DNA of 64,000 nt, from IMG/VR virus record IMGVR_UViG_3300031953_000001. One strand, 5' to 3'. Made by a program: the position numbers and the translations under genes. Source of the stretch: a virus (lineage: Duplodnaviria > Caudoviricetes). A model generated the notes under the pieces. It saw nothing but the letters and a program-made list of their open reading frames with translations. It did not search any database and had not been told where the DNA came from. Shown here in pieces: positions 19,233-36,292 of this stretch; position 1 is the stretch's first letter; each line of letters starts with the position of its first letter.

Positions 19233-19296
19233 CGCATACAGTCAACCGTCCAAATCCAAGATATCCTTTTAATAGTCAGGTGTAAGTCCATTGCAA

Positions 19297-19334
19297 AATA
19301 AGAGGAGGGCGCTTGCCCTCCTCTTATTTTTTGT
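19297..19334. terminator. bidirectional terminator
   Basis: AATAAGAGGAGGGC-gctt-GCCCTCCTCTTATT + T-run between convergent units; nearly identical to 734-755. Confidence 0.85.
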
Positions 19335-19565: not shown

Positions 19566-19568
19566 AAG

Positions 19569-20372: not shown

Positions 20373-20391
20373 GTTGTGCACCTTTTATTAA

Positions 20392-21429
20392 TTAATCGGC
20401 CGCTGTGCAACCCGTTGGAACCGTAATGAGCATATCAGTATCGCCAATGATGCTGGCGGTACTTACAATGTCCACGTCAGAGAGGACAGTTCCTTTTACT
20501 CGCGAGACGTCCAAGGTAATAACACCTGCCTGACTGCGCGCGTTGTTGCCAATCGACGTATTGATCGCGTTAATCGCACCGGCGGCGCTACTGATGACGC
20601 TGCCCTTAACCAATACCCCGTTCAAGGTAGTGACGCCACCACTGATGATGTCCTTACCAACCGTGCTGCCAGTGCCAATGTTGATCGCACCGCTGCCGGT
20701 GGAAACTGAGCCTCCCACAGTAACGTTGTTGGTCAGACCTACAACGCCCGCGCCGGTACTGACAACGCTACCACACAACCAACTTCGGTCGCCTATGGTG
20801 ATGCCGCCAGCGGTGGTGGCGATACCGCCGCCAAGGACGACGTCCGTTAATAAGGTAACCACCCCATCGGTGGATGACACCTCACCGTCCACCGTGCTTC
20901 TCACCCCTAAATTAATCCCGCCGGCTTGGGTGCTGACATCCCCCCCGACTCGACTTTTATACTCCAAGGTTATTACACCGGTAGAGGCACTGGTGCTGAT
21001 GTTCCCAGACAGTCTACTTTCACTGGCTAAATTAACGGTCCCCACCCCGACTACGTTGGCGTTCATTATTGAATTTGCACCCAACACAAACGCCGCGTTG
21101 GTAATCAACGTAAGGTCCTCGGACGGTTTTCCAGCGTTGATCAGATTGCCCGTCCCGGTGGTGAAGGTTCCGGAAAAGGTAATCGTAACCGGAGTCACAC
21201 CGCCCAGAGCGATGGTGTCGCCTGCAACCAACTCCAACGCACTGCATCCGTAGGAGCGCGCCCCGGCATCGATGAGACTACAGCCTATGGGTAGCGTGTC
21301 TCCATTGGAAGAAAACGTGTAATTAGTGGCGGCTTGAACAAGATTGCTTAACAGCAACCCTACCACCAGCAGCGTCTGACACAAGAGTTGTATCGGCGTA
21401 TACCGACGGTGGGGGCTTTGGTGTTTCAT
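20392..21429 (-). CDS. secreted Gly/Thr-rich beta-helix repeat protein
   Basis: Signal peptide ending VQA-A; roughly 25-aa repeats G.I.T..G.I.LG...TV.G. Confidence 0.65.
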   Translation of the reverse strand: MKHQSPHRRYTPIQLLCQTLLVVGLLLSNLVQAATNYTFSSNGDTLPIGCSLIDAGARSYGCSALELVAGDTIALGGVTPVTITFSGTFTTGTGNLINAGKPSEDLTLITNAAFVLGANSIMNANVVGVGTVNLASESRLSGNISTSASTGVITLEYKSRVGGDVSTQAGGINLGVRSTVDGEVSSTDGVVTLLTDVVLGGGIATTAGGITIGDRSWLCGSVVSTGAGVVGLTNNVTVGGSVSTGSGAINIGTGSTVGKDIISGGVTTLNGVLVKGSVISSAAGAINAINTSIGNNARSQAGVITLDVSRVKGTVLSDVDIVSTASIIGDTDMLITVPTGCTAAD

Positions 21430-21467
21430 TGTGGTGTTTCCTGGTGATGGGTTAATAGCTTAGTGCA

Positions 21468-22682
21468 TTAAAAGTTAGGTAAATAGTTGGTTTGGATGTT
21501 GCTGTCGAAACTGAAACCGCCAAAGAGAGTTACTTGACTCACAGTCCAACCGCTGAGGTCCTGATTGAAGGCCCCCGCAAAACTGAACATGGAACTCATG
21601 TTGGTCACCTTACTCACATCCCACTGACTCAAAGGTCGGTTGAAGGCGCCAGCTCGATAGAACATAGAACCCATGTCCACCACGTTGCCTACCCCCCAAT
21701 CGTTCAAAGGAAGGTTAAACGCCGTCGCTCTAAAGAACATGGCGTTCATGTTGGTGACGCTGCTGACATCCCAGCTGTTGAGCGGTTGATTAAATGATTC
21801 GGCCCCAGAGAACATCTGCATTGTGGTCTCAACACCGCTGACATCCCAAGCCTCCAGCGGCTGGTTGTAGCTTACGGCTCGGTTAAACATGGCCGTCATA
21901 TCCACCACACCGCTGACGTTCCATTGGTTAAGCGGTAGATTAAAGGCCGCGGCCTCTCGGAACATGTGTGAGGTGTCGATCACATTACTCATGTCCCAGT
22001 GGCTAATATTGCTGTTGAAGTCAGCTGCCCCGTAAAACATATACCGACACGACGTCCCAGGGAGAAAGGCCGGACTGTCAGCGTCGTTGATCACAAACCC
22101 GGTCCGGTTTTGGAACATACGTTCGCCTGAGGCAAACGTAGTTAGTCCCCACCGCCATATATTTTTCCACTGTTTCTGATGTTCTGGTAACGGTGCGGTA
22201 AACCCGGCGATGGCGCCTAACACATGAACGTCGTATATCCCAGGGACCGCGTAAGTGTGACTGATGCCCCGGGTGGTTGTTACATACCCAGAGCCATCGC
22301 CCCAGTCGATGGTGACGTCACTGCCGGCGGCAAAGGGTAAGGCCACGTCGGCGGCGCCTGCCGTGTCACCTTCGGTGTCGATCAATATATGCGTACCGTC
22401 CCGGATCGGATGTCCCCGCATTAAGATAACGGCGATCTCATCGCGAACCGACTCACCCATAAACAGAGGTTGGCTGAACAGCTGATCGATGTCGGTGATT
22501 GTAGGGTCGTCTCGTTTGACTTGAAAGACCAGTCTTGCGTACTCATCGCCTTTGATTTGAGCCGTGGATTTGGCGCTGAGGAGATCCCATGGAGTGACCT
22601 CTGATAACACCGCTTGCCGGTAAGCTTCGGTGGCGTTGTACAGCTCATTGCGTTTGGCATAAAGATCGTCGAGGATAGCCAT
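21468..22682 (-). CDS. BspA/DUF285 repeat surface protein with N-terminal phage module and PKD-like domain
   Basis: About six repeats of FNxPLxxWDVSxVxxMxxMFxxAxx; TIDWGDG...HTY. Confidence 0.9.
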   Translation of the reverse strand: MAILDDLYAKRNELYNATEAYRQAVLSEVTPWDLLSAKSTAQIKGDEYARLVFQVKRDDPTITDIDQLFSQPLFMGESVRDEIAVILMRGHPIRDGTHILIDTEGDTAGAADVALPFAAGSDVTIDWGDGSGYVTTTRGISHTYAVPGIYDVHVLGAIAGFTAPLPEHQKQWKNIWRWGLTTFASGERMFQNRTGFVINDADSPAFLPGTSCRYMFYGAADFNSNISHWDMSNVIDTSHMFREAAAFNLPLNQWNVSGVVDMTAMFNRAVSYNQPLEAWDVSGVETTMQMFSGAESFNQPLNSWDVSSVTNMNAMFFRATAFNLPLNDWGVGNVVDMGSMFYRAGAFNRPLSQWDVSKVTNMSSMFSFAGAFNQDLSGWTVSQVTLFGGFSFDSNIQTNYLPNF

Positions 22683-22734
22683 ATCTGAGTCTCAAGGAAA
22701 GGCGAACGTACGGTACAACGACCCACCCCGATCG

Positions 22735-23487
22735 TTATTTACGAAACAACGTCTCACCTAACCATCCAATGGGGTCTATGCGGTGGAAACGTACTTGATT
22801 TGGGTGTCGATGATGTTCTTCGTGCCAGCAGTCACCGAGAATAAAGGGAAACATCCATAAACTGCTGTGGGCGCGGTCGTGATCGTTGCCCCAACCGTGG
22901 CCCCAGGTGTTGGCTAACGATTGCAGTTGCCACACCAGAGCCGGTGGCGCCCAGACTAGAGCCAAGGCCCAGTCCAACGGCAGCAGCCAGAGACTGCCTA
23001 ACAACACCGATCCGTAGATCTTCCAGTAGTGTCTGTGAAACCCCACATGCCAGGTATCTCGCAACAAACGCCCGGCATGCCGGCCGCTGACCTCTCGAAA
23101 GGTGTACCCTAACAGCTGAATGGCCAGCCAATGACTCTGAGCTGGACTATGAGGGTCCTTAGGGGTCCCCTGGTGCTTGTGATGGGCATTGTGAGTGGCA
23201 ACCCACCCCAACGTACTGCCTTGAAGTGAAAGCCCTCCCAGAAGAGTTAGAATCACCTCTACGGATCGGGGTACAGTTACGGTCTTGTGCGTCAGCACTC
23301 GATGGTACATAAAACTGATCCCCAGTTGTGAGATCAGGTACGCCATCCCTAGGGCCAGTAACAGAGCGCCACCGGCACCAGAAAAGACCAATGTCAAAAC
23401 GACAGCGTGTGACGCGATGATCACGCTGTAATGCAAGACTCGGTTCAGAGGTACGATTTCTACATTGATCGCGCGCAGTCGGTCCAT
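22735..23487 (-). CDS. membrane fatty acid desaturase family protein (#5, most divergent)
   Basis: His boxes HRVLTH, HNAHH, HEEHH; TM segments. Confidence 0.9.
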   Translation of the reverse strand: MDRLRAINVEIVPLNRVLHYSVIIASHAVVLTLVFSGAGGALLLALGMAYLISQLGISFMYHRVLTHKTVTVPRSVEVILTLLGGLSLQGSTLGWVATHNAHHKHQGTPKDPHSPAQSHWLAIQLLGYTFREVSGRHAGRLLRDTWHVGFHRHYWKIYGSVLLGSLWLLPLDWALALVWAPPALVWQLQSLANTWGHGWGNDHDRAHSSLWMFPFILGDCWHEEHHRHPNQVRFHRIDPIGWLGETLFRK

Positions 23488-23516
23488 GGTACTTCCTTTT
23501 AAGTCAATAAGAACGT

Positions 23517-24416
23517 TCAAAGCGTCTCTATGTCAAAGGCATTGAAGAAGGCTTCATCCAAGTGACCATACCGATCGTTCCAGCGTCGGGTGTTTTCTTT
23601 TACCGCTTGGTAGAAGGGGTCGCTCAAATGAGACTTCACCTCAAACGCCCTGTTCAGGTAACGGCGAAACGGGATTTGCAAGAACACTCGGTCGGTGGTG
23701 AGGTTTGGGGTCCATGGGTAGATGGGACCTGCAAAGTTGGCGACAGCGGCTTCTCTTAATCGGACATGATGTCTAAGGCACATCGAGTAGGTCAAACGAT
23801 CCACCACGCTGACTTCGGGTTTGATCACAAAATTGCCTGGCAATAACCCTTTCTTTAGCGGGGCGGCTAACCGATTAATGAAGTGTTTGTAATGCCCTCG
23901 GTCTGGGTTGTCTTGGGCTAAGTAACGTGCGTCCAGATCAGCCCAGTCTGGGTTTGATCGTAATCGGGCCAAGTTGAACACCGCCAGTCCCAACGTGAAA
24001 TAACTCTTAGATCGCACCAGACGATCGGGGTGATGTGGATCGAATCTCACATACAGGTCGTTCATTGAGGACAACTCAAACGGACGGTCGGGTCGAACAA
24101 CCACGTCTTGACCGCTCAGATCGGCGTGACTCACCTCAGCGATGGGTCGGTTACACACACTGTGACTGCTCACCAAACACACCCGGTCTTCGGTGCTGTG
24201 CTCAAGTAACGTAGACAGAACCGCCACCGGGTCAGCACGGTGGATCTGAACGTACTCAAGGGTGTCGGCAAATGCCGCTTCCAATCGCCTGAGAGCCAAT
24301 ACATCGTCGCTGTAGACTCGGCACCGCCAAGTCGGGTTCTTCAGTTTAAAACTGTGAATCGCCACTATGGCCTGATCGACTTTTTCCCATGGCACCACAA
24401 AAGCAGCAAAGGCCAT
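23517..24416 (-). CDS. GT8-like glycosyltransferase with degenerate catalytic motifs
   Basis: DRVCLVSSH (in place of D+VLYLDxD), YFTLGLAVFNL (YFNSGV..+NL), NFAGPIYPW (HF.G..KPW). Confidence 0.6.
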   Translation of the reverse strand: MAFAAFVVPWEKVDQAIVAIHSFKLKNPTWRCRVYSDDVLALRRLEAAFADTLEYVQIHRADPVAVLSTLLEHSTEDRVCLVSSHSVCNRPIAEVSHADLSGQDVVVRPDRPFELSSMNDLYVRFDPHHPDRLVRSKSYFTLGLAVFNLARLRSNPDWADLDARYLAQDNPDRGHYKHFINRLAAPLKKGLLPGNFVIKPEVSVVDRLTYSMCLRHHVRLREAAVANFAGPIYPWTPNLTTDRVFLQIPFRRYLNRAFEVKSHLSDPFYQAVKENTRRWNDRYGHLDEAFFNAFDIETL

Positions 24417-24426
24417 GACGGTCTCC

Positions 24427-24951
24427 TTATGCGTTTAAGAAATCGATTTCCAAGGCCGCCATGACCCCGCCATTGGGACCTGCGGTGACCGTAATCTCAC
24501 TGCCTGATAGTCGAACGATCTGCATGTCGTTCACGGGCGTGTCATTAAGAGACACTTCCCCCAACACCGGCGCCAGGTACCCAGGAAAGCCTACCGACAT
24601 CGTCTCATTAGGTCCTAAGACCAAACGGTGGGGTTTGATCACCCGGTGGTTTGGGTTGGTGGTGTTCAGACAGATGCCGATGGTCTCTTCCAGCGCAGTG
24701 ACCTTAGTCCAATACGGATTGCCTTTCTGTGCAATGTCGTCGTGGGCGGTCAGTTGGTATTCGTTGAACGTGTTTTGACTTAAGGTACTGCCTTTGACCA
24801 AGAACCGACTTTCCACCACCGGTATAAAATCGTCGGTGTACTTTTCTTCCCAGTGGGGTTTCTTCCCCAGAATGAAAGACTCGTCTTTGTCAACGTAGAA
24901 CTTAGCCACCGCCACACCTTCGTGACGCAAGCGATTAACCCGTGTGCGCAT
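24427..24951 (-). CDS. hypothetical protein, possibly cupin/beta-barrel
   Basis: 174 aa, beta-strand-like pattern; co-directional in the cassette. Confidence 0.55.
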   Translation of the reverse strand: MRTRVNRLRHEGVAVAKFYVDKDESFILGKKPHWEEKYTDDFIPVVESRFLVKGSTLSQNTFNEYQLTAHDDIAQKGNPYWTKVTALEETIGICLNTTNPNHRVIKPHRLVLGPNETMSVGFPGYLAPVLGEVSLNDTPVNDMQIVRLSGSEITVTAGPNGGVMAALEIDFLNA

Positions 24952-24953
24952 GA

Positions 24954-25247
24954 TTAAAACTCCAGAGGTTGGTCTTGGGTGTGGACATCGCCGTCATCGT
25001 AATGCACGTACAGGGCGTCTGGGGTCGATCCGACCCGCTGTTCAATAAGTTCGCGGAGTTGTGAAGATAATGCCAACTCAGCAGGCAACTCAGGCCGCAG
25101 CTCTTCGATCAACTCTCGCATACGAATGAGAGGCAAGTTAGGGTCGTCAACTATGGCTTGAGGCAACGGGTGGCTATGCACCACCCACCCCCAATCGACT
25201 AACGCAGTCTTATCGACCAGATCAATGGCTTTGACTACAAAGGACAT
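24954..25247 (-). CDS. hypothetical protein
   Basis: GGAG RBS before ATG 25247. Confidence 0.55.
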   Translation of the reverse strand: MSFVVKAIDLVDKTALVDWGWVVHSHPLPQAIVDDPNLPLIRMRELIEELRPELPAELALSSQLRELIEQRVGSTPDALYVHYDDGDVHTQDQPLEF

Positions 25248-25258
25248 CACGTTCTCCA

Positions 25259-26116
25259 TCAGAGTTGTTTGGGGTAGGTACGTTGGTGCTCTAACGCGAT
25301 GAGGGACAGCGTCTTCTCCATCCGCTCTGAACTGTCGTCTACCCAACAAACCCCACTGTAAGGGCTGGCTAGGAAACGCCTCAGCGCGATGTGTGGGTTG
25401 GTCTGTGAAAACACCGCCTTGTATATTTGTCGGTAGATGTTTCGGGCACAGGTGGGGTCCGTGCTGTCTACTAACTTCACGACCTTACCCAACAGTAACC
25501 CCAACAACCCCATTTCGGAGGCAGAGGTGGTGTATACGGTCTCAGCCCGACGTAAGTAATCGAACCCACTCAAAGTGGCAGGTAACACCGCCCCTGGAAA
25601 ACTGTCGTTCAACTTTTTCAACCAAGCCCCGTTAGTGATGGGATGGGGTTTGATCTTACTGCCCCGCCGATACAGCTGGAACACCCTGACCCAATCGACG
25701 TTGTGTTCCAACAAGTTGGTGCCCGGTAGAAACACCACCGATGGGATGGTGGTTTTGTCCAACTGACGAGTGAGTCGATACTTATCCAACCGCATCCCCA
25801 ACAGACGTTGTTCCACATCGATAGGTTCAGCATCGGTGTCGCTGACCGCCGAGATTGCCATACCGTACCGAAGTCTATCGTCGCAGGGGGTGATCATGAT
25901 GGCTCGGGTAAAGAGTTCGGTGTAATGTAAGGATTTGAATTCAGGATCGGGGGTGTAATAAATGTCGTACAACACTTCTTTGGTTGTCAGCGACTCTAAC
26001 CGTTGTCCTAAGACGTCCAATTGACTCAAAGCCGCCACTCGACCTAAAGGGCCGGATTTGAAGACCTGAGTCACCGCTGAGTCTATACGGTCCTCAGTAA
26101 ACGACCGTCGGGTCAT
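25259..26116 (-). CDS. capsule-biosynthesis (KpsS/KpsC-like) GT-B glycosyltransferase-like protein
   Basis: VVFLPG, IKPHP, AETVYTTSASEMGLLGLLLGKVV match the Capsule_synth-type pattern. Confidence 0.65.
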   Translation of the reverse strand: MTRRSFTEDRIDSAVTQVFKSGPLGRVAALSQLDVLGQRLESLTTKEVLYDIYYTPDPEFKSLHYTELFTRAIMITPCDDRLRYGMAISAVSDTDAEPIDVEQRLLGMRLDKYRLTRQLDKTTIPSVVFLPGTNLLEHNVDWVRVFQLYRRGSKIKPHPITNGAWLKKLNDSFPGAVLPATLSGFDYLRRAETVYTTSASEMGLLGLLLGKVVKLVDSTDPTCARNIYRQIYKAVFSQTNPHIALRRFLASPYSGVCWVDDSSERMEKTLSLIALEHQRTYPKQL

Positions 26117-26343
26117 ACGGCGCCGTCCAACCGTTTGGCCAAGATCTCGTCTACTCGGGACTGCACCCGATCGTCAACCACGGCGTTGATGTTGGTTTCA
26201 AACTCGTCCATAATCGCCGCTACCCGATCGTCAAACCGAGTGATGTGTTCCAATAACGCCTCGGCTAAGGTCTCAATGCGCAGGCGCGCAGCGTCCAGTT
26301 CGGCTAAGGTGACGGCTTTATCGGCTACGGTTGCTTCAGTCAT
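26113..26343 (-). CDS. small coiled-coil protein
   Basis: 76 aa heptad-like; stop overlaps the next start. Confidence 0.6.
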   Translation of the reverse strand: MTEATVADKAVTLAELDAARLRIETLAEALLEHITRFDDRVAAIMDEFETNINAVVDDRVQSRVDEILAKRLDGAV

Positions 26344-26357
26344 AAAATATTCCTTGC

Positions 26358-26870
26358 TCAGTATAGCTGTAGTGCGATGATGGCGGTGTTGGCTGAGGTG
26401 GTGTACTCAGTGGTTCGACTGCCGGCCAAGGTGGTGGTGTTTCGGGTTAAGGTGGTGTTTCTTGCTGTGACGTGCGATGTGGTGCGGGACGCAAAGACGG
26501 CGGTGGTGACCGAAGTACTCAATGTCTTCCCGCCGGTGTCTGGTATCTCCGTAATGCGCGAGGTGGTGCGAGACCCAGACTGATACGTAGTTGCGTACGA
26601 GGTGTTGAAACTCGTTGACGCTATCCAGGACGTTAAGGTCGTGGTGGAGGCGTCTGTGGTACGAGTGGCCGTGGCTGTGGTCACTCGGGTGGTGGACACC
26701 GACCGCGAGTAAGTCACGTTTAACATGTCGCTCAGACGAAACGGTGGCGTGAGCGGCATGCTTGGAAAGCCTCGACCCAGCAGGTTGGACATGCGATTGT
26801 CGGGGAGCGTGTTTTGAAATTCGGTGATCACGTCCGAGAATCGTAGCGGTGGACTGCCTTGTAATGCCAT
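26358..26870 (-). CDS. Ser/Thr-rich putative virion/fibre-associated protein
   Basis: N-terminus MALQGSPPLRFSDVITEF resembles phage fibre-tip accessory proteins; C-terminal two thirds dominated by T/S with SRTT repeats. Confidence 0.7.
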   Translation of the reverse strand: MALQGSPPLRFSDVITEFQNTLPDNRMSNLLGRGFPSMPLTPPFRLSDMLNVTYSRSVSTTRVTTATATRTTDASTTTLTSWIASTSFNTSYATTYQSGSRTTSRITEIPDTGGKTLSTSVTTAVFASRTTSHVTARNTTLTRNTTTLAGSRTTEYTTSANTAIIALQLY

Positions 26871-26873
26871 AGG

Positions 26874-27620
26874 TTACTCCTTTTTAATCAGACGAATAAA
26901 CCAGGCGGCAAAGTCCCATTCCCACCAGCGTTCTTGGGTGTTCCAATGTCCCGGGTGGGCGTGATGGTTGTTGTGCCATCCATCCCCAGCGGTTAATACG
27001 TTCATCAGCCAACTGTTACGACTGCGGTCGGGCGTCTCGTGGTTGCGGTAACCCCAACCATGGCCGAGGGTGTTGAACACTCCTTTCAGATGAAACAACA
27101 GAGCCGTAGGAAGACACCAGCCGTAGACCAGCAGTTTCCAGTCGATCAAACTCAACCCCAAGGCGTAAATCAGCAGAATGAGAACGTAGTAGTCGTGTGT
27201 GATCTGATAGAACCGTTGTTTACGTTCGGTTCGAATGGCGCGATGGTCCAAGACCCAAGGTCGATCCAGCCAATCTCCAAACCAAGCGTCGATAAGGCCG
27301 TGTTGGTGTTGGCTGTGTGGGTCTCTGGGGCGATCTGAAAAGCCGTGATGGGTTCGGTGTACCAATGCGTTTGTCAATGGCGAGCCTAATGCAGTCAAGA
27401 TCCCCACGCCCGTGAGTGCAAGCTCAATGGGTTTATAGGTTTCAAACGACCTGTGCGCCAACAATCGATGATACCCCACGGTGATGCCAAAGAACCCATA
27501 GGCGTAATAGATAGCTAATGTAAACCCAAGCCAGCCCCACCAGCCGAGATAGATCGCCAGAGGCAGAAACACACACAACACCAGTTGGTTGCAGATTTGA
27601 AGGTGTTTTAGATACGTCAT
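26874..27620 (-). CDS. membrane fatty acid desaturase (#4)
   Basis: HRLLAH, HRTHH, GDGWHNNHH. Confidence 0.92.
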   Translation of the reverse strand: MTYLKHLQICNQLVLCVFLPLAIYLGWWGWLGFTLAIYYAYGFFGITVGYHRLLAHRSFETYKPIELALTGVGILTALGSPLTNALVHRTHHGFSDRPRDPHSQHQHGLIDAWFGDWLDRPWVLDHRAIRTERKQRFYQITHDYYVLILLIYALGLSLIDWKLLVYGWCLPTALLFHLKGVFNTLGHGWGYRNHETPDRSRNSWLMNVLTAGDGWHNNHHAHPGHWNTQERWWEWDFAAWFIRLIKKE

Positions 27621-27700
27621 GGTTTACTCGCTCAATCGGAGTGGGTTCACTCTATTAGAGATCGCTGTCAAAGAACAGACATCCATGTCCTAATGAAACC

Positions 27701-29923
27701 TCAACGGCGATTAAGTCGGTCCGACAACTTGACGGTCAGCTCTTGAACGGTGACCTCCAGCCAAGCGACGCGGCGGTTGCTGATGTCCAACTCTCTCGCC
27801 ATCTGTTTGATGGAGTGTTGCGCCAGGGCGTGAAAGTCGTTGTACGACAACCCCTCGTAACCGTCGTCTTTCTGTCTTACCAAGTCAGGGAAGAACGCTT
27901 TAACGTCTGTGGTCAGAAACCCGTAGTGGGTTTGATTTGAGACGTCTTCAGTTAGGCGATACGAGTAGGGTCTCAGTTCCAGATAGTTATACAACGCGTT
28001 ATCCAGAGCTTTCACGTCTTCCTTCAATCGAGGATCGGAGGTGTAGACCACATCGCCGGCGTACAGATCGCCGGTGACCGTAAGATCGCCGGTGACCGTA
28101 TCGCCACCCGCTTTACCGACGTACCGAGCGTCGTGATCGCCCGACACGCGGTGATCGTTCATACCCTTGGCTTGCAATACCGTGTCCGTGTCGACGGACG
28201 TTCGCAGCGCGGTGGTGGGCAAGTTCGGCTCTGCGTTGGCGGCAACGGTGTCGAGTTTGACGACGTTGGCCGACGCCATCAATCCGGCTGCTGAAACGCT
28301 GGCCAGAGGGAAGGCGACGCCATCTCCCGTAGACGACACCAAGGTAGGGGCTTCTGCCGTGCCGCCCACACTGAGGTCCGTGGCTACGTTGACCTGCGCT
28401 CCCGATTGAACGCTGGCCAGTTTACTGTGGTCGTTGATGCTCATGAACCCGGCAGCCGTATCCGTTGCCACAGGAATGGCCACGTTGTTGCCCGTGCTGC
28501 TTACCAAGGTTCGAGTGTCGCCCGCACCGGTCAAGGTCAGATCCGTACCCACATTGACTTGAGCACCGGAACTCACCCCATCCAACTTCACTTTATCGCT
28601 GGCGGACATGACGCCGGCGTTGGTGACACTTACCCCAGGAATGGCGACATTGTTGCCGTAGCTGTTGGTGATCGTGATACTGGTGGCGGTTTGCGTGAGC
28701 GCCAAGTTACTGGGTACATTGACCTGGGCGCCTGTCTCTACCCCCCCGAGTTTGGTGAACTGCGCCATGGACATCAACCCGGCCGTGCTGGCTGAGGCTG
28801 TCGGTAAGACCACGTTACTACCGGTGGACGAGGTGACACCGCGAGCATCGCCGGTCCCACTCAACCCGAGGTTGGTGCCCACGTTGACTTGTGCGCCAAT
28901 CGCCACACCGGCCAATTTGGTTTTCTCAGTCGAACTGTAATCTTCGCTCGATAGCCCTTTGCCAGCGACGGTGTTCACTTTGGTGAGCAGCGCCGTGTCC
29001 ACTTGAAGTTGAGTGTAATAACGCCCGTCGTGGTCGTCGGACGCGACGTGATCTACCATTCCTTTGGCCGTCAGCACCGTACCTGTCTCATTCAACGTTC
29101 GTGACGAGGTGGTGGGCAAGTTCACTTCCGCCGCGGTTTGGATGTTGGCCAATTTGGTAAACTGACTTGGCGCCATCAACCCAACCTTGGACGCATCGGC
29201 CACCACCAAATCAACTCCGGTACCACCACTGTTCTCTATGCGGTAGGTTGTACCCCCACGAGTGAACGTCAAGTTCACCGCAACGTTCTGCTCAGCGCCG
29301 GCTTCAATGCCGGTTAATTTACTCAACCAGGCATCGGTGAAGTCATTTGCACTTAAGGCTTTGCCCGTGACTTTATCGACTTTGGTACCCAAGGCTGACT
29401 GCAACCCGGCGATCGAATCGATGCTCAAGTTCTCCAACGAGTCTCGATTGAGCTTGATGTAATCCACAATCTCTTGGATCTGATCCAGAGTGGTGTCGTC
29501 GCTGCCAATCAAGGCGTTGATGGCGTCCACCGCGTCTTTCAGTACCTTACCTTGCGCCGCACTCAACACCTCACTGGGGGCGTTGCTGGTCAGCGTATCG
29601 GCGATGTTGGCGATGTCAATTTTCAACGCCAAGGCCGCATCCATTTCCGTTTCGGTGTAGTAACGCCCGTCGTGGTCGTCGGACGCGACGTGATCTACCA
29701 TCCCTTTGGCGGTTAACAAGACCCCGGTGCTATTGACCGTGCGTTCGATGGTGATGGCGTTCGGAATCTGGTCCAACCCGACCTGTACTTTGGTCACTGA
29801 GTGGGGATTATCGTCTCGTGCAATGTGCGTGTCCGTGTTCTCAAAGAGAATGTCGATCTTTCCCTTGAGGGTTTCGAACATACGCTTGACCGCTGCGGTT
29901 AGCTGGTCGGTTGGTTTGGTCAT
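27701..29923 (-). CDS. tail fibre with C-terminal peptidase S74 intramolecular chaperone
   Basis: YTSDPRLKEDV...GFLTTDV..FPDLV...GLSYNDF + coiled coil; internal repeats of about 50-55 aa (QVNV.T.L...SSTG..V..P.A....AG.M). Confidence 0.88.
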   Translation of the reverse strand: MTKPTDQLTAAVKRMFETLKGKIDILFENTDTHIARDDNPHSVTKVQVGLDQIPNAITIERTVNSTGVLLTAKGMVDHVASDDHDGRYYTETEMDAALALKIDIANIADTLTSNAPSEVLSAAQGKVLKDAVDAINALIGSDDTTLDQIQEIVDYIKLNRDSLENLSIDSIAGLQSALGTKVDKVTGKALSANDFTDAWLSKLTGIEAGAEQNVAVNLTFTRGGTTYRIENSGGTGVDLVVADASKVGLMAPSQFTKLANIQTAAEVNLPTTSSRTLNETGTVLTAKGMVDHVASDDHDGRYYTQLQVDTALLTKVNTVAGKGLSSEDYSSTEKTKLAGVAIGAQVNVGTNLGLSGTGDARGVTSSTGSNVVLPTASASTAGLMSMAQFTKLGGVETGAQVNVPSNLALTQTATSITITNSYGNNVAIPGVSVTNAGVMSASDKVKLDGVSSGAQVNVGTDLTLTGAGDTRTLVSSTGNNVAIPVATDTAAGFMSINDHSKLASVQSGAQVNVATDLSVGGTAEAPTLVSSTGDGVAFPLASVSAAGLMASANVVKLDTVAANAEPNLPTTALRTSVDTDTVLQAKGMNDHRVSGDHDARYVGKAGGDTVTGDLTVTGDLYAGDVVYTSDPRLKEDVKALDNALYNYLELRPYSYRLTEDVSNQTHYGFLTTDVKAFFPDLVRQKDDGYEGLSYNDFHALAQHSIKQMARELDISNRRVAWLEVTVQELTVKLSDRLNRR
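29019..29059. repeat. 41-bp perfect direct repeat, copy 1
   Basis: TAACGCCCGTCGTGGTCGTCGGACGCGACGTGATCTACCAT, identical at 29661-29701. Confidence 0.9.
29661..29701. repeat. 41-bp perfect direct repeat, copy 2
   Basis: Identical to 29019-29059; encodes MVDHVASDDHDGRY. Confidence 0.9.
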
Positions 29924-30002
29924 ACCGGATTCCCCGTACTAGGCAAAATAAGACGAAGGCGTCCTCGCAAAAGGCGCCCTCGTCGATGATTCGGTTAGGA
30001 TC

Positions 30003-30461
30003 TTACGATGACGTGGAGCTGATCGTTAACAGTGGCATGCACAACCACAAGCGACTGGGAGACATGGGCAGATCGGGCCAGGACAAAGTAGACCCCCCTA
30101 TCGTAAGCGCGGTGGCCACAAAGGTTGCCGGGTTCCAGCCCTCTAAAGTGCGTGGGGTACCGATGGGCATCCATTGAGGTTTGTCGTACGCAGGTTTGGT
30201 TATCTGCGTTCTTACGAATCGGGACATGGCCTCAGAATCGGTCACCCGCACCACCACCAAACTTCGGTCTGGGTACCGGTCTTCGAACGTTGTCTTAGTT
30301 CTAAACACCACCCCCGAGTCGACGTCTACCTCAGCGATGTAGGAGTTCAACTCCAACGCCACGTGATCCCAATAGGTTTGGGTAACAAGACGACGCACCG
30401 AGGCCGTCTTGCCAGGTCTGCGAGCAAACCAGACCTTTACCCATTTATTTTTTGGTCGCAT
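30003..30461 (-). CDS. permuted papain-like (YiiX/NlpC-P60) fold protein lacking the expected catalytic Cys
   Basis: WDHVAL, Q..KPAYD, then WNPATFVATAL where W.CSELVA.AL is expected. Confidence 0.5.
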   Translation of the reverse strand: MRPKNKWVKVWFARRPGKTASVRRLVTQTYWDHVALELNSYIAEVDVDSGVVFRTKTTFEDRYPDRSLVVVRVTDSEAMSRFVRTQITKPAYDKPQWMPIGTPRTLEGWNPATFVATALTIGGSTLSWPDLPMSPSRLWLCMPLLTISSTSS

Positions 30462-30714
30462 CGATGACTTTCACCACATCGCTCAGAGACAAGCCCGTCC
30501 ACTGACCGTAGACTTGAGTCAACGTCTCTACGTCCTTGGTGTTGTACAGCGCGCTTTCAATCAACTTAACCAGAAGATCGTCGATGGAGTTGTCGGTCTT
30601 CTTAGACAGCAAGACCAACTTGGTGATGATGATGCGTTTGACGGCGTCGGTACCCAGCAGACTGAGTAGAATCTCACCGAGTTTGCTCAGCATCAAAGTC
30701 ATAGTGGTTTTCAT
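30445..30714 (-). CDS. small hypothetical phage protein
   Basis: GGAGA RBS; KKTDNSIDDLLVKL motif typical of small phage proteins. Confidence 0.6.
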   Translation of the reverse strand: MKTTMTLMLSKLGEILLSLLGTDAVKRIIITKLVLLSKKTDNSIDDLLVKLIESALYNTKDVETLTQVYGQWTGLSLSDVVKVIDATKK

Positions 30715-30783
30715 AGGTCTTCTCCTAACGGTTAAACTAAGTGTGGTCATACCATTTCAAGAAGATGAGCCCGATCCTTAAAG

Positions 30784-30815
30784 CGGAATAAGAGGAGACC
30801 TGTTGGTCTCCTCTT
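30784..30815 (-). terminator. hairpin + TATTCCG element closing the radical SAM/desaturase unit
   Basis: AAGAGGAGACC-tgtt-GGTCTCCTCTT with TATTCCG downstream on the minus strand. Confidence 0.75.
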
Positions 30816-30833
30816 TGTTTTATGCTCACATTG

Positions 30834-31115
30834 TCAACGGGTACGTATAATAGCGGCTACATCATCCCGCCGAAGAGACGACATTAAGTCTGGGTTGCTG
30901 AACAAAACGTCGTCTATTAAAGTGGGGTTGTCTTTCTTCACCCGCCCCATTAACTTTGCGTATTCAACGACGGTCACTCGCGCAGCTTTACGAGAAGCGG
31001 TAACCTCAAACTGTGTGGTGCGTTTGTGGTTAAACTCCTCAACCGTGCGTTTGTAATCATCGATCGCCGCATTTAACTCCGCGCGCTTTACGTTTAAATC
31101 TGTAACTGTAACCAT
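30834..31115 (-). CDS. stand-alone copy of the N-terminal module of the two BspA proteins
   Basis: DL.VKRAELN.AIDDYK...EYAKL...VK.D.PT...LFS.P..M....RDD+A.I.RT shared with 21468-22682 and 54807-55961. Confidence 0.8.
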   Translation of the reverse strand: MVTVTDLNVKRAELNAAIDDYKRTVEEFNHKRTTQFEVTASRKAARVTVVEYAKLMGRVKKDNPTLIDDVLFSNPDLMSSLRRDDVAAIIRTR

Positions 31116-31124
31116 GACTGTGTC

Positions 31125-31973
31125 TCATATAGAGTCGAGGGAGGGATATCCTTCTCTCTTATCGACGTGTCGCATCAAATGGTGAGTCGATGGGTTTATC
31201 GGCGATGGGTGAGCGCCTTCGTTTGAGCGTTTACGAATGATCCGAATGATCCACGCGGGTAAGTCGAACTCCCACCATCGGACCTGGTTATTCCAATGTT
31301 GCGGATTGTGATGGTGGTTGTTGTGCCAGCCTTCCCCTAAGAACAACCAAGCCACCATCGGTGAATTGCGACTGTCGTCGTCGGTGTTGTAATTACGGTA
31401 ACCGACCGTGTGGGTCCAAGCCAAAGCGAACTTGAACACATACAGAATGATCGTGGCCGGCATGGCAAACGCAAAGACCACCAACCGCCAATCGATCGCC
31501 AGTAAGACCAAACACCAAACTCCCAAGATCGTGAAGTAGTGATTGTGACAAAACACGATGTCTTTCTGACGCAGCAGGTCTTTAGCTATTCTAGGCGACA
31601 GCTTTACCTCCGGCCAGTGCCCAAACCACACCCTAAAGAACCCCTGCACTTTGGGGCTGTGTGGGTCGGATGTGGTGTCTGCCTTGGCGTGATGGGTACG
31701 GTGCACGATCGTCCAGTTGATCGGAGAACCAAACCCCATCAACATCCCGACAAAGAGCAAAACGTAACGAATGGGGGTGTAGGTCTCAAATGACCTGTGG
31801 GCAACGTATCGGTGGTACCCCAAGGAGTTACCGAACAGACTGAGGACGTAGTACATCCCCAAGGCCACCAACAACCACTCGTATTGTTCGCTGTACATCA
31901 CGTATCCTAACCCCACCGCGGTTAACAGGTGATTGCCGCGGTTTAACCACAGTAGTTTGTGGTTATGGCTCAT
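31125..31973 (-). CDS. membrane fatty acid desaturase (#3)
   Basis: HRYVAH, HRTHH, GEGWHNNHH. Confidence 0.93.
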   Translation of the reverse strand: MSHNHKLLWLNRGNHLLTAVGLGYVMYSEQYEWLLVALGMYYVLSLFGNSLGYHRYVAHRSFETYTPIRYVLLFVGMLMGFGSPINWTIVHRTHHAKADTTSDPHSPKVQGFFRVWFGHWPEVKLSPRIAKDLLRQKDIVFCHNHYFTILGVWCLVLLAIDWRLVVFAFAMPATIILYVFKFALAWTHTVGYRNYNTDDDSRNSPMVAWLFLGEGWHNNHHHNPQHWNNQVRWWEFDLPAWIIRIIRKRSNEGAHPSPINPSTHHLMRHVDKREGYPSLDSI

Positions 31974-32770
31974 AACGTCCTCCGGTATTTAGGCAAAGGT
32001 GTATCGCGCCGGTGGATCAGTTTGATGATCTGTGCGGGGATGTCCCATTCCCACCAGCGTTCTTGGGTGGTCCACCGCGAAGGATGGGCGTGGTGGTTGT
32101 TGTGCCAGCCCTCACCCATGGTGACCAAGTTGGCGATCCAGCTGTTGCGACTGGTGTCACCCTTAAGGTCGTGGTTACGATAACCGTGCAGGTGAGGGAT
32201 AACGATGATGCCGCAGGCGCTGTGCAACGACAAGATTGCGGGTACGGCGTAGACAAAGACCACGCCTTGCCACCCCAGCGTTATGTACAGCAGCAAACAC
32301 CAAAGGATCAGGATCTCAAAGTAGTTGGCGTGCATCCATCGGTGCAACGGGTCTTTACGAAGCCCTTTGGAGACTCGACCCGCTTGGGTAAACCCCGAGG
32401 TGTTCCAGACCCCGAACCAAGCTCTGAATACCCCGATGTTTTGTGGGCTGTGTGGGTCGTGCTCTTGATCGGTGTGTATATGGTGGATGCGGTGTACGAT
32501 GGTCCAAGCCAAAGGGCTACCCACCGTGGTTAAAACCCCACAAAACAGTAAGAACGCTTCTATGGGCTTGTACGTCTTAAACGCACCATGAGCCGCCATG
32601 CGATGAAAGCCGACGTTGATGCCCAAGATGCCAATGAACCAGTAGGTTAACCACGACACCATAAGCCAGCCCCACCAGCCTTGTACGACCGCCCAGATCA
32701 CCAAGGGTAAGGCGATGATGTGGGTGGCGATTTGCAGTAAGCGTACGCCTTGGTTGTGTGTAAGTTTCAT
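31970..32770 (-). CDS. membrane fatty acid desaturase (#2)
   Basis: HRMAAH, HRIHH, GEGWHNNHH. Confidence 0.93.
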   Translation of the reverse strand: MKLTHNQGVRLLQIATHIIALPLVIWAVVQGWWGWLMVSWLTYWFIGILGINVGFHRMAAHGAFKTYKPIEAFLLFCGVLTTVGSPLAWTIVHRIHHIHTDQEHDPHSPQNIGVFRAWFGVWNTSGFTQAGRVSKGLRKDPLHRWMHANYFEILILWCLLLYITLGWQGVVFVYAVPAILSLHSACGIIVIPHLHGYRNHDLKGDTSRNSWIANLVTMGEGWHNNHHAHPSRWTTQERWWEWDIPAQIIKLIHRRDTPLPKYRRTL

Positions 32771-32773
32771 GCC

Positions 32774-33532
32774 TTATCCTCGTTTTTTAATGAGCCAAAT
32801 GAACATCGCTGGGGGATCGATCTCCCACCAACGGACTTGAAAGTTGTATCGCCCAGGGTGCGCGTGGTGGTTGTTGTGCCAGCCGTCGCCCATGGTCAAA
32901 AAATGACACAGCCAACTGTTCTTGCTGTTGTCCTTGATGTCGAAGTTACGGTATCCCCACTGATGCGCTAAGATGGCCAAGGCGTAACTGACAAAGAAGG
33001 TTGACAAAGCCGCGGGGATCAGATAGACCGCGATCACAATCTCAACCCCCCAAACCAACCACAGCGCCGCAACGATTGCCAGGTGCAGATGAAAATAATA
33101 GCGGTGTATCCACATGAACGATGGGGTATCGAGGATGTCTCGCATCGCCACTCGCCGGTCCTCGGTTTCAACGTAGTGCAAACACCATAAGGATTTCCAA
33201 TACCCCATGTGCCTATGACAATGGGGGTCTTTGGGTGTTTCGGTGTATCGGTGATGTACCCGATGTATCCACGCCCAACTGTGGGGAGTGCCTACCGTAC
33301 AAGGCACACTCAGAAGACCCAAGGCCCACTCTATCGGCCCGTACGTCTTAAAGGATCGATGCGATACGTACCGATGTAAATACGCGTTGAACCCGATGCC
33401 CTGAATGACGCCGTAAGCCAGCACACTGACCCACAACAACCCAGGGTCGGTCATCGCCAGATACACCACCCCAGGAATAAAACAAGCAAACAACATTAAC
33501 CGCCACCAGTTTAACCGTTGGGTGGTAAACAT
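32774..33532 (-). CDS. membrane fatty acid desaturase (#1)
   Basis: HRYVSH, HRVHH, GDGWHNNHH; AGGAG RBS before ATG 33532. Confidence 0.93.
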   Translation of the reverse strand: MFTTQRLNWWRLMLFACFIPGVVYLAMTDPGLLWVSVLAYGVIQGIGFNAYLHRYVSHRSFKTYGPIEWALGLLSVPCTVGTPHSWAWIHRVHHRYTETPKDPHCHRHMGYWKSLWCLHYVETEDRRVAMRDILDTPSFMWIHRYYFHLHLAIVAALWLVWGVEIVIAVYLIPAALSTFFVSYALAILAHQWGYRNFDIKDNSKNSWLCHFLTMGDGWHNNHHAHPGRYNFQVRWWEIDPPAMFIWLIKKRG

Positions 33533-33542
33533 AACACGTCTC

Positions 33543-34748
33543 CTAATGATGTTTCTGCAAAGCAAGGACTGAGTTTAGACCCCCAAACCCAAACGCAGTC
33601 TTAACCACCACGTTTATATCCACGTTGTCTTGACGTTGAGCCAATTGAATGGGGGCCAAGTCGGGATCGAGTGTACTCACTGGGTTGCCCACCAAAAACC
33701 GATGGTTCATCATCAGCACACTGTACCATATCTCAAGACTGCCTGAGGCGGTAACGCTGTGGCCGGTTAACCGTTTAAACGCAGTGACCGGAACGCTATC
33801 GCCATAGACGTCGTAAATCGCTTGAGCTTCGGCCACGTCGCCGTTGGGGGTTGACGTTGCATGGGCTGAGATGACGTCGGGGTATATCCCCTGAAGGTCC
33901 AGTTGCGCTTGCACTGAGGCCATGCAGCGCCGGGCTCCTTCCCCGGTGGGGTTGGTCAAGTCGCCGCCGTCGGAGTAATCCGCGTAAGCCACGCAGCGGG
34001 CGTAAGCGAACGTTCCTTGACGAGCAACCCAATGTTCATAAGACTCTACGATCAAACAGCCACCGCCTTCAGAAATGGTAAACCCCGCTCGATCTTTAGA
34101 GAAGGGTGCCGACGCATGAGTGGGATTATTGCCTCGGTACAACGCCCGCATGGCGTCAAAGCCGGCCAAGGTCTCCCCCAGAATCTTCTCAGCGCTCACA
34201 CAGACCACCACATCGGCTTTGCCCAACTCGATCAAGTCCATGGCCTGGGTAACCGTACGGACCCCAGAGGCGCAGGCGTGTTGAACCGTGTGCACAGGTC
34301 CTCGAATATTGAACAAGGCCGTTAGAGGTCCTGTGACAGCCGTGGGGATAGACTTAAGCAGCGCAAACGGGGAGGTGCGCTTTTCTCGATACCCCAACAG
34401 CGAATGCAATCCGTCGATTCCTGTGGCCCCCATCGCTGAGACCAACGCGGTGCGCTCACTGGCGAAGACCTCAAGACCCAACCCGGCGTCCGCCAAGGCC
34501 CGTAGAATAGACACGTAGCTGATGGCCAGAGTGTCGTTGTACACGCTCTTAGGTAAGTCGCGGGCAGGACTGTCCTCTTTAAGGTTGAACACGCAAGGGC
34601 TCCAAAAACTGGCTTTGAGGTTCTTGCTGAGTATCGCCATGGGACTGATGTTGGACGTCTCTGCTTTGAGGTTATCCACCAGTTCTTGCTGTGTCTGCCC
34701 CATGGGGGTGATTCCACCGGCGCCGGTGATGAGGGTATGAACGGACAT
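33543..34748 (-). CDS. beta-ketoacyl-ACP synthase (FabB/FabF type)
   Basis: Cys-His-His triad: HACASG, HATSTPNGD, KRLTGH; terminal FGFGGLNS. Confidence 0.93.
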   Translation of the reverse strand: MSVHTLITGAGGITPMGQTQQELVDNLKAETSNISPMAILSKNLKASFWSPCVFNLKEDSPARDLPKSVYNDTLAISYVSILRALADAGLGLEVFASERTALVSAMGATGIDGLHSLLGYREKRTSPFALLKSIPTAVTGPLTALFNIRGPVHTVQHACASGVRTVTQAMDLIELGKADVVVCVSAEKILGETLAGFDAMRALYRGNNPTHASAPFSKDRAGFTISEGGGCLIVESYEHWVARQGTFAYARCVAYADYSDGGDLTNPTGEGARRCMASVQAQLDLQGIYPDVISAHATSTPNGDVAEAQAIYDVYGDSVPVTAFKRLTGHSVTASGSLEIWYSVLMMNHRFLVGNPVSTLDPDLAPIQLAQRQDNVDINVVVKTAFGFGGLNSVLALQKHH

Positions 34749-34756
34749 GGCGTGGT

Positions 34757-35311
34757 TTACTCTTTTAGATAGACATCAATGGGGATGGCCAATCGTAACC
34801 CTTTGGCGTGTTCTTGCACGTAATGCTGCAAGTACGATGGGAAGATCAGCAACCCCCCCGTTTGGGGTTGGTGTTTGTACGGTTGAAAGTGGTTGTTGAT
34901 CACATCCCAAGGGTAACCGCGCGAAGCCAGACCGCGTGGGTCGCACACGGTTAAGTACCCCTCGCACGCTTCTAGATAATAAATGGCTGACACATGCGCC
35001 CCGGTGTGGTGGTGCAAGGGCGTACCGTGACCATCACTGCTGTTGCGCACCCACGCCTGCCAACTGTCGATCAGAGGCTCGTACGCAAACTGTTCGCACG
35101 CGTATTGCATGATCAACGGGATCAGCTGATCTTCCACAAACGCTTTGAGTCGTGGGTACTCTGGTAGATGGAGGTTTTTGGTCTCATCGATGGGGCGATC
35201 GTCGTAGGATCGACCAGGCATCAAGGCTTCTTCCACCAAGGCGTCCAGATTGGGGGCTGGAACCGTTTCTTCACGCAGTACAATCTTCCACGGTTGAATG
35301 TCGGTGGCCAT
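34757..35311 (-). CDS. 2OG-Fe(II) oxygenase (TIGR02466/2OG-FeII_Oxy_5-like)
   Basis: LHHH...SAIYY, DPRG, LLIFPSYLQHYV, R. Confidence 0.85.
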   Translation of the reverse strand: MATDIQPWKIVLREETVPAPNLDALVEEALMPGRSYDDRPIDETKNLHLPEYPRLKAFVEDQLIPLIMQYACEQFAYEPLIDSWQAWVRNSSDGHGTPLHHHTGAHVSAIYYLEACEGYLTVCDPRGLASRGYPWDVINNHFQPYKHQPQTGGLLIFPSYLQHYVQEHAKGLRLAIPIDVYLKE

Positions 35312-35321
35312 AGTTGAGTCC

Positions 35322-35885
35322 TTACTGGGGTTCTTTTAAATACAGATCGGTGGGCAGAGATACCCGCAACCCCTGACCGTGACCGTCAACGTAATGCTGC
35401 AAGTACGATGGGAAGATCAGCAAGAGTCCCGCTTGGGGGTTCTCACTGAACAGGTTAAAATGGCGGTTCCTCACGTCAGTAGGATAACCGCGACACGCCG
35501 ATCCCCTAGGGTCAACTAAGTTGATGCTGCCCTCACTGGCGCAGGGGTAATAGATGGATGACAAGAGTGCCCCACTGTGCTCGTGCAGCTTCATGCCTTC
35601 GCCCCCTACTGTCACGCGCAACCAGGCGGTGTAACTGTCCACAAACTGCCGTACCCCGAACTGCTGAGTCAGGTAGTCTTGCAAACGAGGCACTATCTCA
35701 TCGTACACCAAGCGATGGGCTTGAGGGAAATCGCGTTCTGACACCGTGTTGTCATCCAACTCCAACCCATCGAAGTTGCGATTGGTGGACCGCATCAAGG
35801 CTTCTGTGATCAACGCCTCGTTGTCCACTCCTTCAAGAATCTCCCGTCGTACCACACAGCGCCAGGGTTCTAGGTCTTGAAACAT
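35322..35885 (-). CDS. 2OG-Fe(II) oxygenase, tandem paralog
   Basis: LHEH...SSIYY, DPRG, LLIFPSYLQHYV, R. Confidence 0.85.
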   Translation of the reverse strand: MFQDLEPWRCVVRREILEGVDNEALITEALMRSTNRNFDGLELDDNTVSERDFPQAHRLVYDEIVPRLQDYLTQQFGVRQFVDSYTAWLRVTVGGEGMKLHEHSGALLSSIYYPCASEGSINLVDPRGSACRGYPTDVRNRHFNLFSENPQAGLLLIFPSYLQHYVDGHGQGLRVSLPTDLYLKEPQ

Positions 35886-36292
35886 GCAGCCTCCGCTAGA
35901 CACTCGTCTTTAAAGTAACGCACCGTAAAATCCACCCAGAGCCCGGTTAAAGGAATGTGGTCTATCCCCCCCAGCCCTTCAAGGATTTTGTCGTAGTCCG
36001 TTTTGTTCTCACTGTAAGGCACAAAGTACGGGTCGTTGCCAAACAACAAGTCAGGGTCATCCAATACCTCGTAGAAGTCTTCGTCAAAGTGATCGCGCAA
36101 CAGTCTGGCATAGATAACCGCAATGGCGTACGATTTCCCTGGATAAACAGACGCGGCTATAGGAGCACGAAAGTACCGTAAAGCCTCACCCACAACGTCA
36201 GGATCGGAGATGGTGGTGAAGTTGCGGGTATCGTCGCTGTGCTCTTCCGTCAGTCGGTGGTACAGAAGTTGATTGACTTTCCATTCTTTCAT
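35870..36292 (-). CDS. hypothetical protein of the radical SAM unit
   Basis: ATGA overlap with upstream gene; VYPGKSYAIAVIYA...DPYFVPY. Confidence 0.7.
   Translation of the reverse strand: MKEWKVNQLLYHRLTEEHSDDTRNFTTISDPDVVGEALRYFRAPIAASVYPGKSYAIAVIYARLLRDHFDEDFYEVLDDPDLLFGNDPYFVPYSENKTDYDKILEGLGGIDHIPLTGLWVDFTVRYFKDECLAEAACFKT

Follow-up and report, generated by a model that had tools for sequence, protein, structure and literature searches.

Fatty acid desaturases encoded by viruses (vFADs) are known from cyanophages, where DesC-like enzymes were proven experimentally to have delta-9 activity on C16 chains (Roitman et al. 2018, PMC5776448), and from cold brines. Zhong et al. (2020) found 12 vFADs, distributed over four viral populations (PMC7300359). 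According to that paper and PMC10405475, 10 vFADs belong to two viral populations of cryopeg brine, form virus-only clades and evolve under purifying selection, and they are read as host-derived auxiliary genes adjusting membrane fluidity to cold and salt. Ten genes in two populations would correspond to five per phage. One of the two FAD-encoding viral operational taxonomic units, vOTU43_CB18_222366, is described in PMC10405475 as a complete circular genome with a predicted Pseudomonas host, its FAD genes being 'active at a low level' in brine metatranscriptomes. Here, a stretch of 64,000 nucleotides (the window) from the IMG/VR virus record IMGVR_UViG_3300031953_000001 was analysed, which carries five membrane fatty acid desaturase genes (Des1 to Des5) and a FabB/FabF-like beta-ketoacyl-acyl carrier protein (ACP) synthase, called ketosynthase below. 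The five genes are almost certainly the published vFADs of vOTU43_CB18_222366 from Arctic cryopeg brine (PMC10405475), with which habitat and gene content agree. The five genes and the fluidity hypothesis are thus already known, and the present locus alone is no discovery. Apparently new, no description of them having been found in the searchable literature, are the phiKZ-like identity of the phage, the ancient one-to-one orthology of its paralogs, a recurrent ketosynthase-desaturase(-ACP) cassette, and a multi-copy pattern specific to viruses. Literature searches on jumbo or huge phages with desaturases and on phage ketoacyl/ACP/desaturase combinations returned nothing relevant.

All five genes are full-length open reading frames (ORFs; Table 1), and the coordinates and three His boxes given to them in the initial annotation hold. 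Every product passed the Pfam FA_desaturase model PF00487 (42-72 bits against a gathering score of 29.7; E 1e-10 to 1e-19), and a scan of the whole genome with this model returned exactly these five desaturases and no others. Five such matches cannot arise by chance. In the alignment nine His residues are invariant in all five proteins, falling in box 1 (HRxxxH), box 2 (HxxHH) and box 3 (HxxHH), with the ninth as a single His ahead of the last box. Des2 to Des5 follow the pattern HRxxxH / HRxHH / HNxHH, and Des1 possesses the variant boxes HNAHH and HEEHH with all nine His kept. The initial annotation had assigned these diverged boxes to the fifth gene; they exist, in Des1 (22735-23487), which is fifth by transcription order but first in the list of that annotation. 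The HNAHH second box is kept in the Des1 orthologs of two related phages and is thus a signature of the subfamily and not decay. The hydropathy of all five proteins fits two N-terminal and two central membrane helices; N-terminal and central peaks were present in each, and four separate helices are not resolved in every protein. Pairwise identity among the five paralogs is 25-43%, Des1 being 25-30% identical to the others and Des2 to Des5 up to ~43% identical among themselves.

Among solved structures the best match was stearoyl-CoA desaturase 1 (SCD1; 4YMK, E 5e-17). The structural comparisons cover the AlphaFold2 model of Des4, which has a pLDDT of 94.6 and long helices at 5-30, 33-60 and 150-194. 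This model matched SCD1 4YMK with a template modelling (TM) score of 0.78 (E 1e-9), and its best Swiss-Prot models were DesC and ADS proteins, the cyanobacterial DesC Q79F73 showing 33% identity and TM 0.84. Identity over the DesC and plant ADS matches was 26-33%, and plant ADS/FAD5 and delta-5 acyl-CoA desaturases were matched as well. The acyl-ACP acetylenases JamB and TtuB, compared by Foldseek, matched with 25-26% identity and TM 0.78-0.80. By sequence, the five proteins are members of the SCD1/DesC/ADS subfamily, with the fold represented by the predicted Des4 model, and each is very probably an active membrane acyl desaturase. Their scores against the NCBIfam DesA equivalog NF049918 were 29-86 bits, far below its cut-off of 400. 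The same subfamily includes delta-5, delta-7 and delta-11 enzymes along with acetylenases; its members differ in regiospecificity and between them use all three acyl carriers, so that neither the substrate nor the double-bond position can be read from homology.

The gene set was found to be conserved in related phages. G001 (also L168), a 73-kb contig with six desaturases, is syntenic with the window and shows the order 2-oxoglutarate (2OG) oxygenase, 2OG oxygenase, ketosynthase (51% identity), Des5 (59%), Des4 (75%), Des3 (52%) and two Des2-like genes (55% and 50%), followed by fibre, KpsS-like, GT8-like, Des1 (66%) and endolysin genes; the tandem array of G001 thus includes its Des2 orthologs. 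In a second relative, L170 (81 kb), the fibre and ketosynthase genes are followed by four desaturases, then a 176-aa ORF and one more desaturase, with the endolysin two genes further downstream of this block and no radical S-adenosylmethionine (SAM) genes between. In the Des3 ortholog at L170:11529 the canonical third His box was not found by regular expression, which may reflect a box variant or a short ORF call. An IQ-TREE phylogeny of 94 sequences, 17 of them cellular, placed each window paralog with its G001 and L170 counterparts in a group of 98-99% support (99% for Des3), the Des2 group including both G001 copies. Des1 falls in a fully viral clade (100%) with copies from L006-L009. Similarly, in two unrelated contigs, L066 and L085, the array members correspond one to one over at least eight subfamilies. 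All 17 cellular sequences, including cyanobacterial DesC-like ones, fell into a single clade (98%) inside the viral diversity, and the same was observed with 221 sequences; the cellular sample consisted of the 80 best pattern matches, mostly Acidobacteriota. Deep divergence of paralogs together with one-to-one orthologs in two phages argues against dosage copies and for a long-standing functional differentiation.

The ketosynthase lies directly upstream of the tandem Des5-Des4-Des3 on the same strand; the Des5 ATG is located ~10 nt past the ketosynthase stop, and the Des3 start overlaps the Des4 stop by 4 nt. It has Cys159 (in ACASG), His296, Lys325, His330 and a GFGG motif, so that the Cys-His-His triad is intact, and C159, H296 and H330 along with the other catalytic residues are invariant across ten viral homologs. 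Scores against the NCBIfam equivalogs stayed below the cut-offs (FabB 239 bits against 630; FabF 228 bits against 494).

To see the family beyond this phage, at least 488 IMG/VR contigs encoding desaturase relatives were available, from which 80 viral loci were fetched with 10-kb flanks; the cellular sample comprised 80 loci with 8-kb flanks. Two or more desaturase copies (range 2-11) were found in 40 of the 80 viral loci, the maxima being 11 in L085 and 8 in L066, while all 80 cellular loci had a single copy. Multi-copy desaturases are specific to viruses in this sample. The initial annotation had described phage desaturases as usually single, which stands for the cyanophages of PMC5776448 and does not for viral metagenomes in general. 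Cellular ORFs were also longer (median 315 aa against ~255 aa in viruses). A homologous ketosynthase was present in 9 of 82 viral desaturase loci, the window counted (7 after removal of near-duplicate contigs), and it directly adjoins a desaturase on its own strand in the window, G001, L170, L169 (a 348-kb scaffold), L085, L058/L063, L015 and L020. Conversely, of 80 viral loci retrieved by the ketosynthase profile, 35 had a desaturase within 8 kb, and in 18 of the 80 a desaturase was encoded on the same strand no more than 18 nt away; these were nearly always loci with two or more desaturases. GenBank 'phage' matches to the ketosynthase were mostly unannotated records, many of them short fragments; they look like host DNA and were not used. 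ACP-like genes with a DSLD motif were observed in or beside some arrays (L085, L166, L032, L038, L056, L234 and L237), that of L085 lying inside the 11-copy array. In this contig (IMGVR_UViG_3300013006_001903) positions 3731-19073 hold eleven desaturase ORFs, a ketosynthase and the ACP-like ORF (16444-16710) within 17 kb, and the block also includes a QueC-like PP-loop protein, an ATP-grasp protein and a rubrerythrin; a CheckV completeness of 2% for a contig of 52 kb hints at a very large virus. The commonest neighbour of viral desaturases was a 2OG oxygenase of the Asp/Asn-hydroxylase family (PF05118), found in 50 of 82 loci. It is ~205-247 aa long (e.g. L076:10317-11057) and often immediately downstream of a desaturase with overlapping stop and start codons; PF05118, named by Pfam for Asp/Asn beta-hydroxylation, is also the family of the acyl hydroxylases LpxO and OlsC. 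Sugar-nucleotide enzymes and hexapeptide or GNAT transferases were other common neighbours.

Conserved, differentiated paralogs and a recurrent translational coupling to an elongating ketosynthase favour the reading that the five desaturases and the ketosynthase form a cassette which redirects host acyl synthesis to an unsaturation pattern that the host does not make, to which we give a probability of about 45%. The five proteins would be compact (~250 aa) four-helix di-iron membrane desaturases, long differentiated by position, chain length or carrier. The phage ketosynthase would extend acyl-ACP on host ACP, the desaturases would use O2 and host reductant, and the products would most likely end in envelope lipids; enzymatic activity, different specificities, the coupling of the ketosynthase and the fate of the product are all steps that we infer. 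Successive desaturation of one substrate, as proposed in the initial annotation, gains indirect support from the old conserved paralogs and from the translational linkage with the ketosynthase in many viral lineages. More generally, it may tentatively be suggested that large uncultured phages, the phiKZ-like brine phage among them, carry a virus-specific lipid cassette by which, in the infected cell, an acyl chain with multiple or unusual unsaturation is built up on a carrier protein. Such a cassette would consist of a FabB/F-like ketosynthase and anciently diverged compact desaturase subfamilies, to which some lineages would add a viral ACP, a short-chain reductase and an LpxO-family hydroxylase.

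Several observations weigh against a phage-directed unsaturation cassette. The desaturase activity of the five genes is a prediction, and the closest characterised relatives of the proteins are acyl-lipid delta-9 enzymes; the cyanophage enzymes that were tested are plain delta-9 C16 desaturases (PMC5776448). Only the 9 of 82 desaturase loci mentioned above have a ketosynthase and half of the viral loci possess a single desaturase, so in most viruses the family clearly works without a viral ketosynthase. Des1 and Des2 lie outside the ketosynthase operon, among tail fibre, glycosyltransferase-like and endolysin genes. No ACP was found in the genome with PF00550 or in the window by iterative search with viral ACPs, and no 2Fe-2S ferredoxin (PF00111) or cytochrome b5 (PF00173) was found in the genome, rubredoxin, flavodoxin and thioesterase not having been searched for; every partner must therefore be supplied by the host. 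Contigs from an RNA library, described below, cannot prove transcription. The cryopeg brine has been cut off from the atmosphere for millennia, which makes the supply of O2 for five oxygenases questionable, and the phage of this sealed brine carries several 2OG oxygenases besides its five O2-dependent desaturases.

The best surviving alternative is that the five proteins are independent delta-9-type acyl-lipid desaturases which make host phospholipids more unsaturated and so keep the membrane fluid in cold, salty brine, with the ketosynthase as just another auxiliary gene of the island. The best structural matches are indeed the acyl-lipid desaturases DesC and plant ADS, the habitat combines cold with hypersalinity, and most viral desaturases come without a viral ketosynthase. 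A FabB/F-type ketosynthase promotes unsaturated fatty acid synthesis in proteobacteria, and it would fit a fluidity module as well. The published work interprets the genes in this way and reports purifying selection (PMC7300359, PMC10405475), and the cyanophage vFADs are proven delta-9 lipid desaturases (PMC5776448). However, one enzyme is enough for delta-9 desaturation, while here five copies have diverged to 25-43% identity and each persists across phages as an orthogroup of its own. It also speaks against this reading that contigs other than that of the brine phage carry as many as 11 copies in arrays with viral ACPs, and that desaturase copies are never clustered in the cellular genomes of the sample. 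On this balance fluidity adjustment is a possible but rather unlikely explanation.

A second alternative holds that the desaturases act in series on one carrier-bound chain to give a polyene or a polyyne/alkyne metabolite, as in JamABC, TtuABC and the cay/pgn clusters. The acetylenases JamB and TtuB belong to the same fold subfamily, the operon of a condensing enzyme and three desaturases is reminiscent of the triads of desaturases in polyyne clusters, and ACPs are present within arrays of other viruses. The clustering itself, with three desaturases in tandem and five in 11 kb, agrees with a polyyne cassette. Against this, no acyl-AMP ligase was found in the 222-kb genome (PF00501, E <= 1), and as ACP, ferredoxin and cytochrome b5 are absent too, the locus does not fit such a cassette. 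Similarity is greater to DesC-type enzymes (33% identity) than to the acetylenases (25-26%), and the benefit of such a product to a lytic phage is not evident. To our knowledge there is no sequence signature that marks an acetylenase. The acetylenation suggested in the initial annotation is matched by the shared fold and not by the degree of similarity or by a dedicated ACP or acyl-AMP ligase, and a polyyne or polyene pathway appears improbable.

Still less probable is a role in modifying the acyl groups of glycolipids in the envelope, such as lipid A and capsule anchors, or in lipidating a virion or tail-fibre-associated protein, for receptor masking, superinfection exclusion or adsorption. 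It would account for the position of Des1 and Des2 among tail fibre, GT8-like, KpsS/Capsule_synth-like and endolysin genes, the Atlas matches for the GT8-like and KpsS-like proteins being leads only, and it agrees with the Asp/Asn-hydroxylase-family oxygenase beside so many viral desaturases and with the sugar-nucleotide enzymes and hexapeptide or GNAT transferases that commonly adjoin them. The hydroxylase partner is, however, missing here, as a profile search of the genome for this family gave nothing, and position in an accessory island is weak evidence. We know of no desaturase of this family which acts on lipid A or on proteins. That the copies are redundant or partly inactive relics, the former being the gene-dosage expansion held as an alternative in the initial annotation, hardly deserves credence, since the multiplicity itself and the low transcription reported in PMC10405475 stand against nine His kept in all five full-length frames, ancient paralogs that each have an ortholog of their own in two related phages, and the purifying selection reported in PMC7300359.

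The carrier of these DesC-like genes is a bona fide phage, given the phiKZ-like structural genes, the nearby tail fibres and endolysin, and the circularly closing assembly. The window corresponds, in reverse complement, to positions 78133-142132 of the 222,493-bp IMG/VR record. The ends of the record carry an exact direct repeat of 127 bp (1-127 and 222367-222493), leaving 222,366 bp of unique sequence; as 127 bp is a typical assembler k-mer overlap, this points to an assembly that closes into a circle rather than to a terminal repeat of biological origin. Structural genes of phiKZ type were identified by PHROG matches and by tblastn of a structural protein, which is 32-35% identical to those of Xanthomonas LucasX, Burkholderia FLC9 and Pseudomonas PhiPA3, and on these similarities the brine phage is placed among distant phiKZ-like jumbo phages. 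Megablast of window positions 20000-36000 against GenBank phages gave no match. A tblastn search with Des4 of 50,697 GenBank phage records gave three weak matches (26-27% identity), none of them from a phiKZ-like phage, so the desaturases are an accessory of the brine lineage. A link with the early-infection vesicle of nucleus-forming phages, raised in the initial annotation, is unsupported because the cultured phiKZ-like relatives have no desaturase genes.

The habitat is a cold, hypersaline Arctic cryopeg brine (-6 to -8 C, 112-140 ppt salt). A brine metatranscriptome run, labelled as brine metagenome, contained 100%-identical contigs over all of 21001-41000, all six genes included, in agreement with PMC10405475. 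These are Logan contigs, which carry no strand, ends or reliable level, and DNA carry-over is possible, so that they are no proof of transcription. RNA-library contigs over 29672-31005 (covering the small ORFs 30003-30461 and 30445-30750, which immediately precede the S74 fibre gene) had a word depth of 28-45, against 2-13 in the 20 kb around, contig depth being an unreliable measure of expression. In one RNA-library contig, position 35388 is connected back to 34818 (571 nt), probably a false join made by the assembler between the tandem PF13759 oxygenase paralogs.

The gene neighbourhood agrees with the initial description of a ketosynthase beside the tandem three, an S74 fibre gene upstream of Des2 and a BspA-like gene beside Des1 (Table 1). 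Des5, Des4 and Des3 are distal genes of a co-directional run whose upstream part holds radical SAM genes and the two PF13759 2OG oxygenases. This oxygenase pair is kept beside the ketosynthase in G001 and absent there in L170, which makes its membership in the cassette uncertain. The 93-aa ORF after Des3 shows a local 39% match over 92 residues to a much longer ORF of G001, so its orthology is uncertain. The hairpin that closes the run is the strongest terminator-like site within 19000-38000, a region in which sigma-70 promoter-like and terminator-like sites were no commoner than in shuffles. Des1 sits two genes upstream of the endolysin. The GT8-like and KpsS-like genes are both kept in G001, and together with the fibre and BspA-like genes they look like an envelope- or glycan-modifying island. 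The 170-aa ORF at 26358-26870 gave no usable lead in an Atlas search.

Table 1. Features of the desaturase region, numbered in window positions.
Feature	Position	Strand	Details
Endolysin	19569-20381		PG_binding_1 + N-acetylmuramidase; 64-65% identical to that of G001
DUF285/BspA-like gene	21468-22682		just downstream of Des1
Des1 (desaturase 1)	22735-23487	-	250 aa; alternative upstream TTG start 23520; PF00487 E 1.2e-10
GT8-like glycosyltransferase	23517-24416	-	299 aa; resembles family 8 (LPS-type); directly upstream of Des1; Atlas 0.96, structure TM ~0.7
KpsS/Capsule_synth-like protein	25259-26116	-	285 aa; structure TM 0.64
Des2 (desaturase 2)	26874-27620	-	248 aa; directly downstream of S74 tail-fibre gene; PF00487 E 1.2e-15
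S74 fibre gene	27701-29923		just upstream of Des2
Hairpin	30790-30815	.	perfect 11-bp stem; closes the run ketosynthase, Des5-4-3, 93-aa ORF
93-aa ORF	30834-31115	-	last gene before hairpin; no Pfam match; not ACP-like
Des3 (desaturase 3)	31125-31973	-	282 aa; third in tandem set; PF00487 E 9.8e-16
Des4 (desaturase 4)	31970-32770	-	266 aa; second in tandem set; PF00487 E 2.4e-17
Des5 (desaturase 5)	32774-33532	-	252 aa; alternative TTG start 33565; first in tandem set; PF00487 E 1e-19
FabB/FabF-like beta-ketoacyl-ACP synthase	33543-34748	-	401 aa; PF00109 + PF02801
Two tandem 2OG-Fe(II) oxygenase paralogs (PF13759)	34757-35903	-	directly upstream of ketosynthase

Viral desaturases are currently read as single, host-derived fluidity genes, and the phages described here keep old sets of differentiated subtypes, linked in this case with a condensing enzyme and in other viruses with a viral ACP. 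If the proposed pathway is true, phages would encode real lipid-biosynthetic pathways, that is, a dedicated viral route and not a simple adjustment of fluidity, and a common class of auxiliary genes in viromes would have to be reinterpreted. Being compact (~250 aa) and naturally diverse, the proteins also provide a set of membrane desaturases in which the evolution of regiospecificity can be studied.

Compared with the known systems, the brine genes are like the cyanophage vFADs in being encoded by a virus, DesC-like and equipped with three His boxes; they differ from the cyanophage example contig, with its one desaturase and phage ferredoxin, in forming five divergent copies along with a ketosynthase, no ferredoxin being found in the genome (PMC5776448). 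In the work of Zhong et al. (PMC7300359, PMC10405475) the terms jumbo and phiKZ are not used, and the passages available mention neither an adjacent ketosynthase nor paralogs with one-to-one orthologs nor comparable arrays in other viruses, the word 'ketosynthase' itself not having been searched for. With SCD1, DesC and ADS (PDB 4YMK and 4ZYO; Swiss-Prot Q79F73 and Q55406) the phage proteins share the boxes, the ninth His and, by the model, the four-helix fold (TM 0.78-0.85), at 21-33% identity to this subfamily. Unlike SCD1, whose solved constructs have 318-339 aa, they are ~250 aa long and have no N- or C-terminal extensions. In the alignment, the position equivalent to Asn265 of SCD1, a residue with a role in the SCD1 structure, is Asn only in Des1 and Des2. 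The ketosynthase shares the triad, the Lys and the GFGG motif with FabB and FabF (KAS I/II) and aligns over its full length to both models, while it belongs to a divergent viral group and is 16-22% identical to most other viral copies. Compared with the alkyne and polyyne cassettes (JamABC, TtuABC, cay/pgn), the phage genome has no acyl-AMP ligase and no ACP, and its desaturases show lower identity to JamB and TtuB than to DesC. The fold subfamily is the same, and as in those clusters several desaturases are grouped with a thiotemplate-type enzyme, the adjacent slot being filled in the phage by the ketosynthase.

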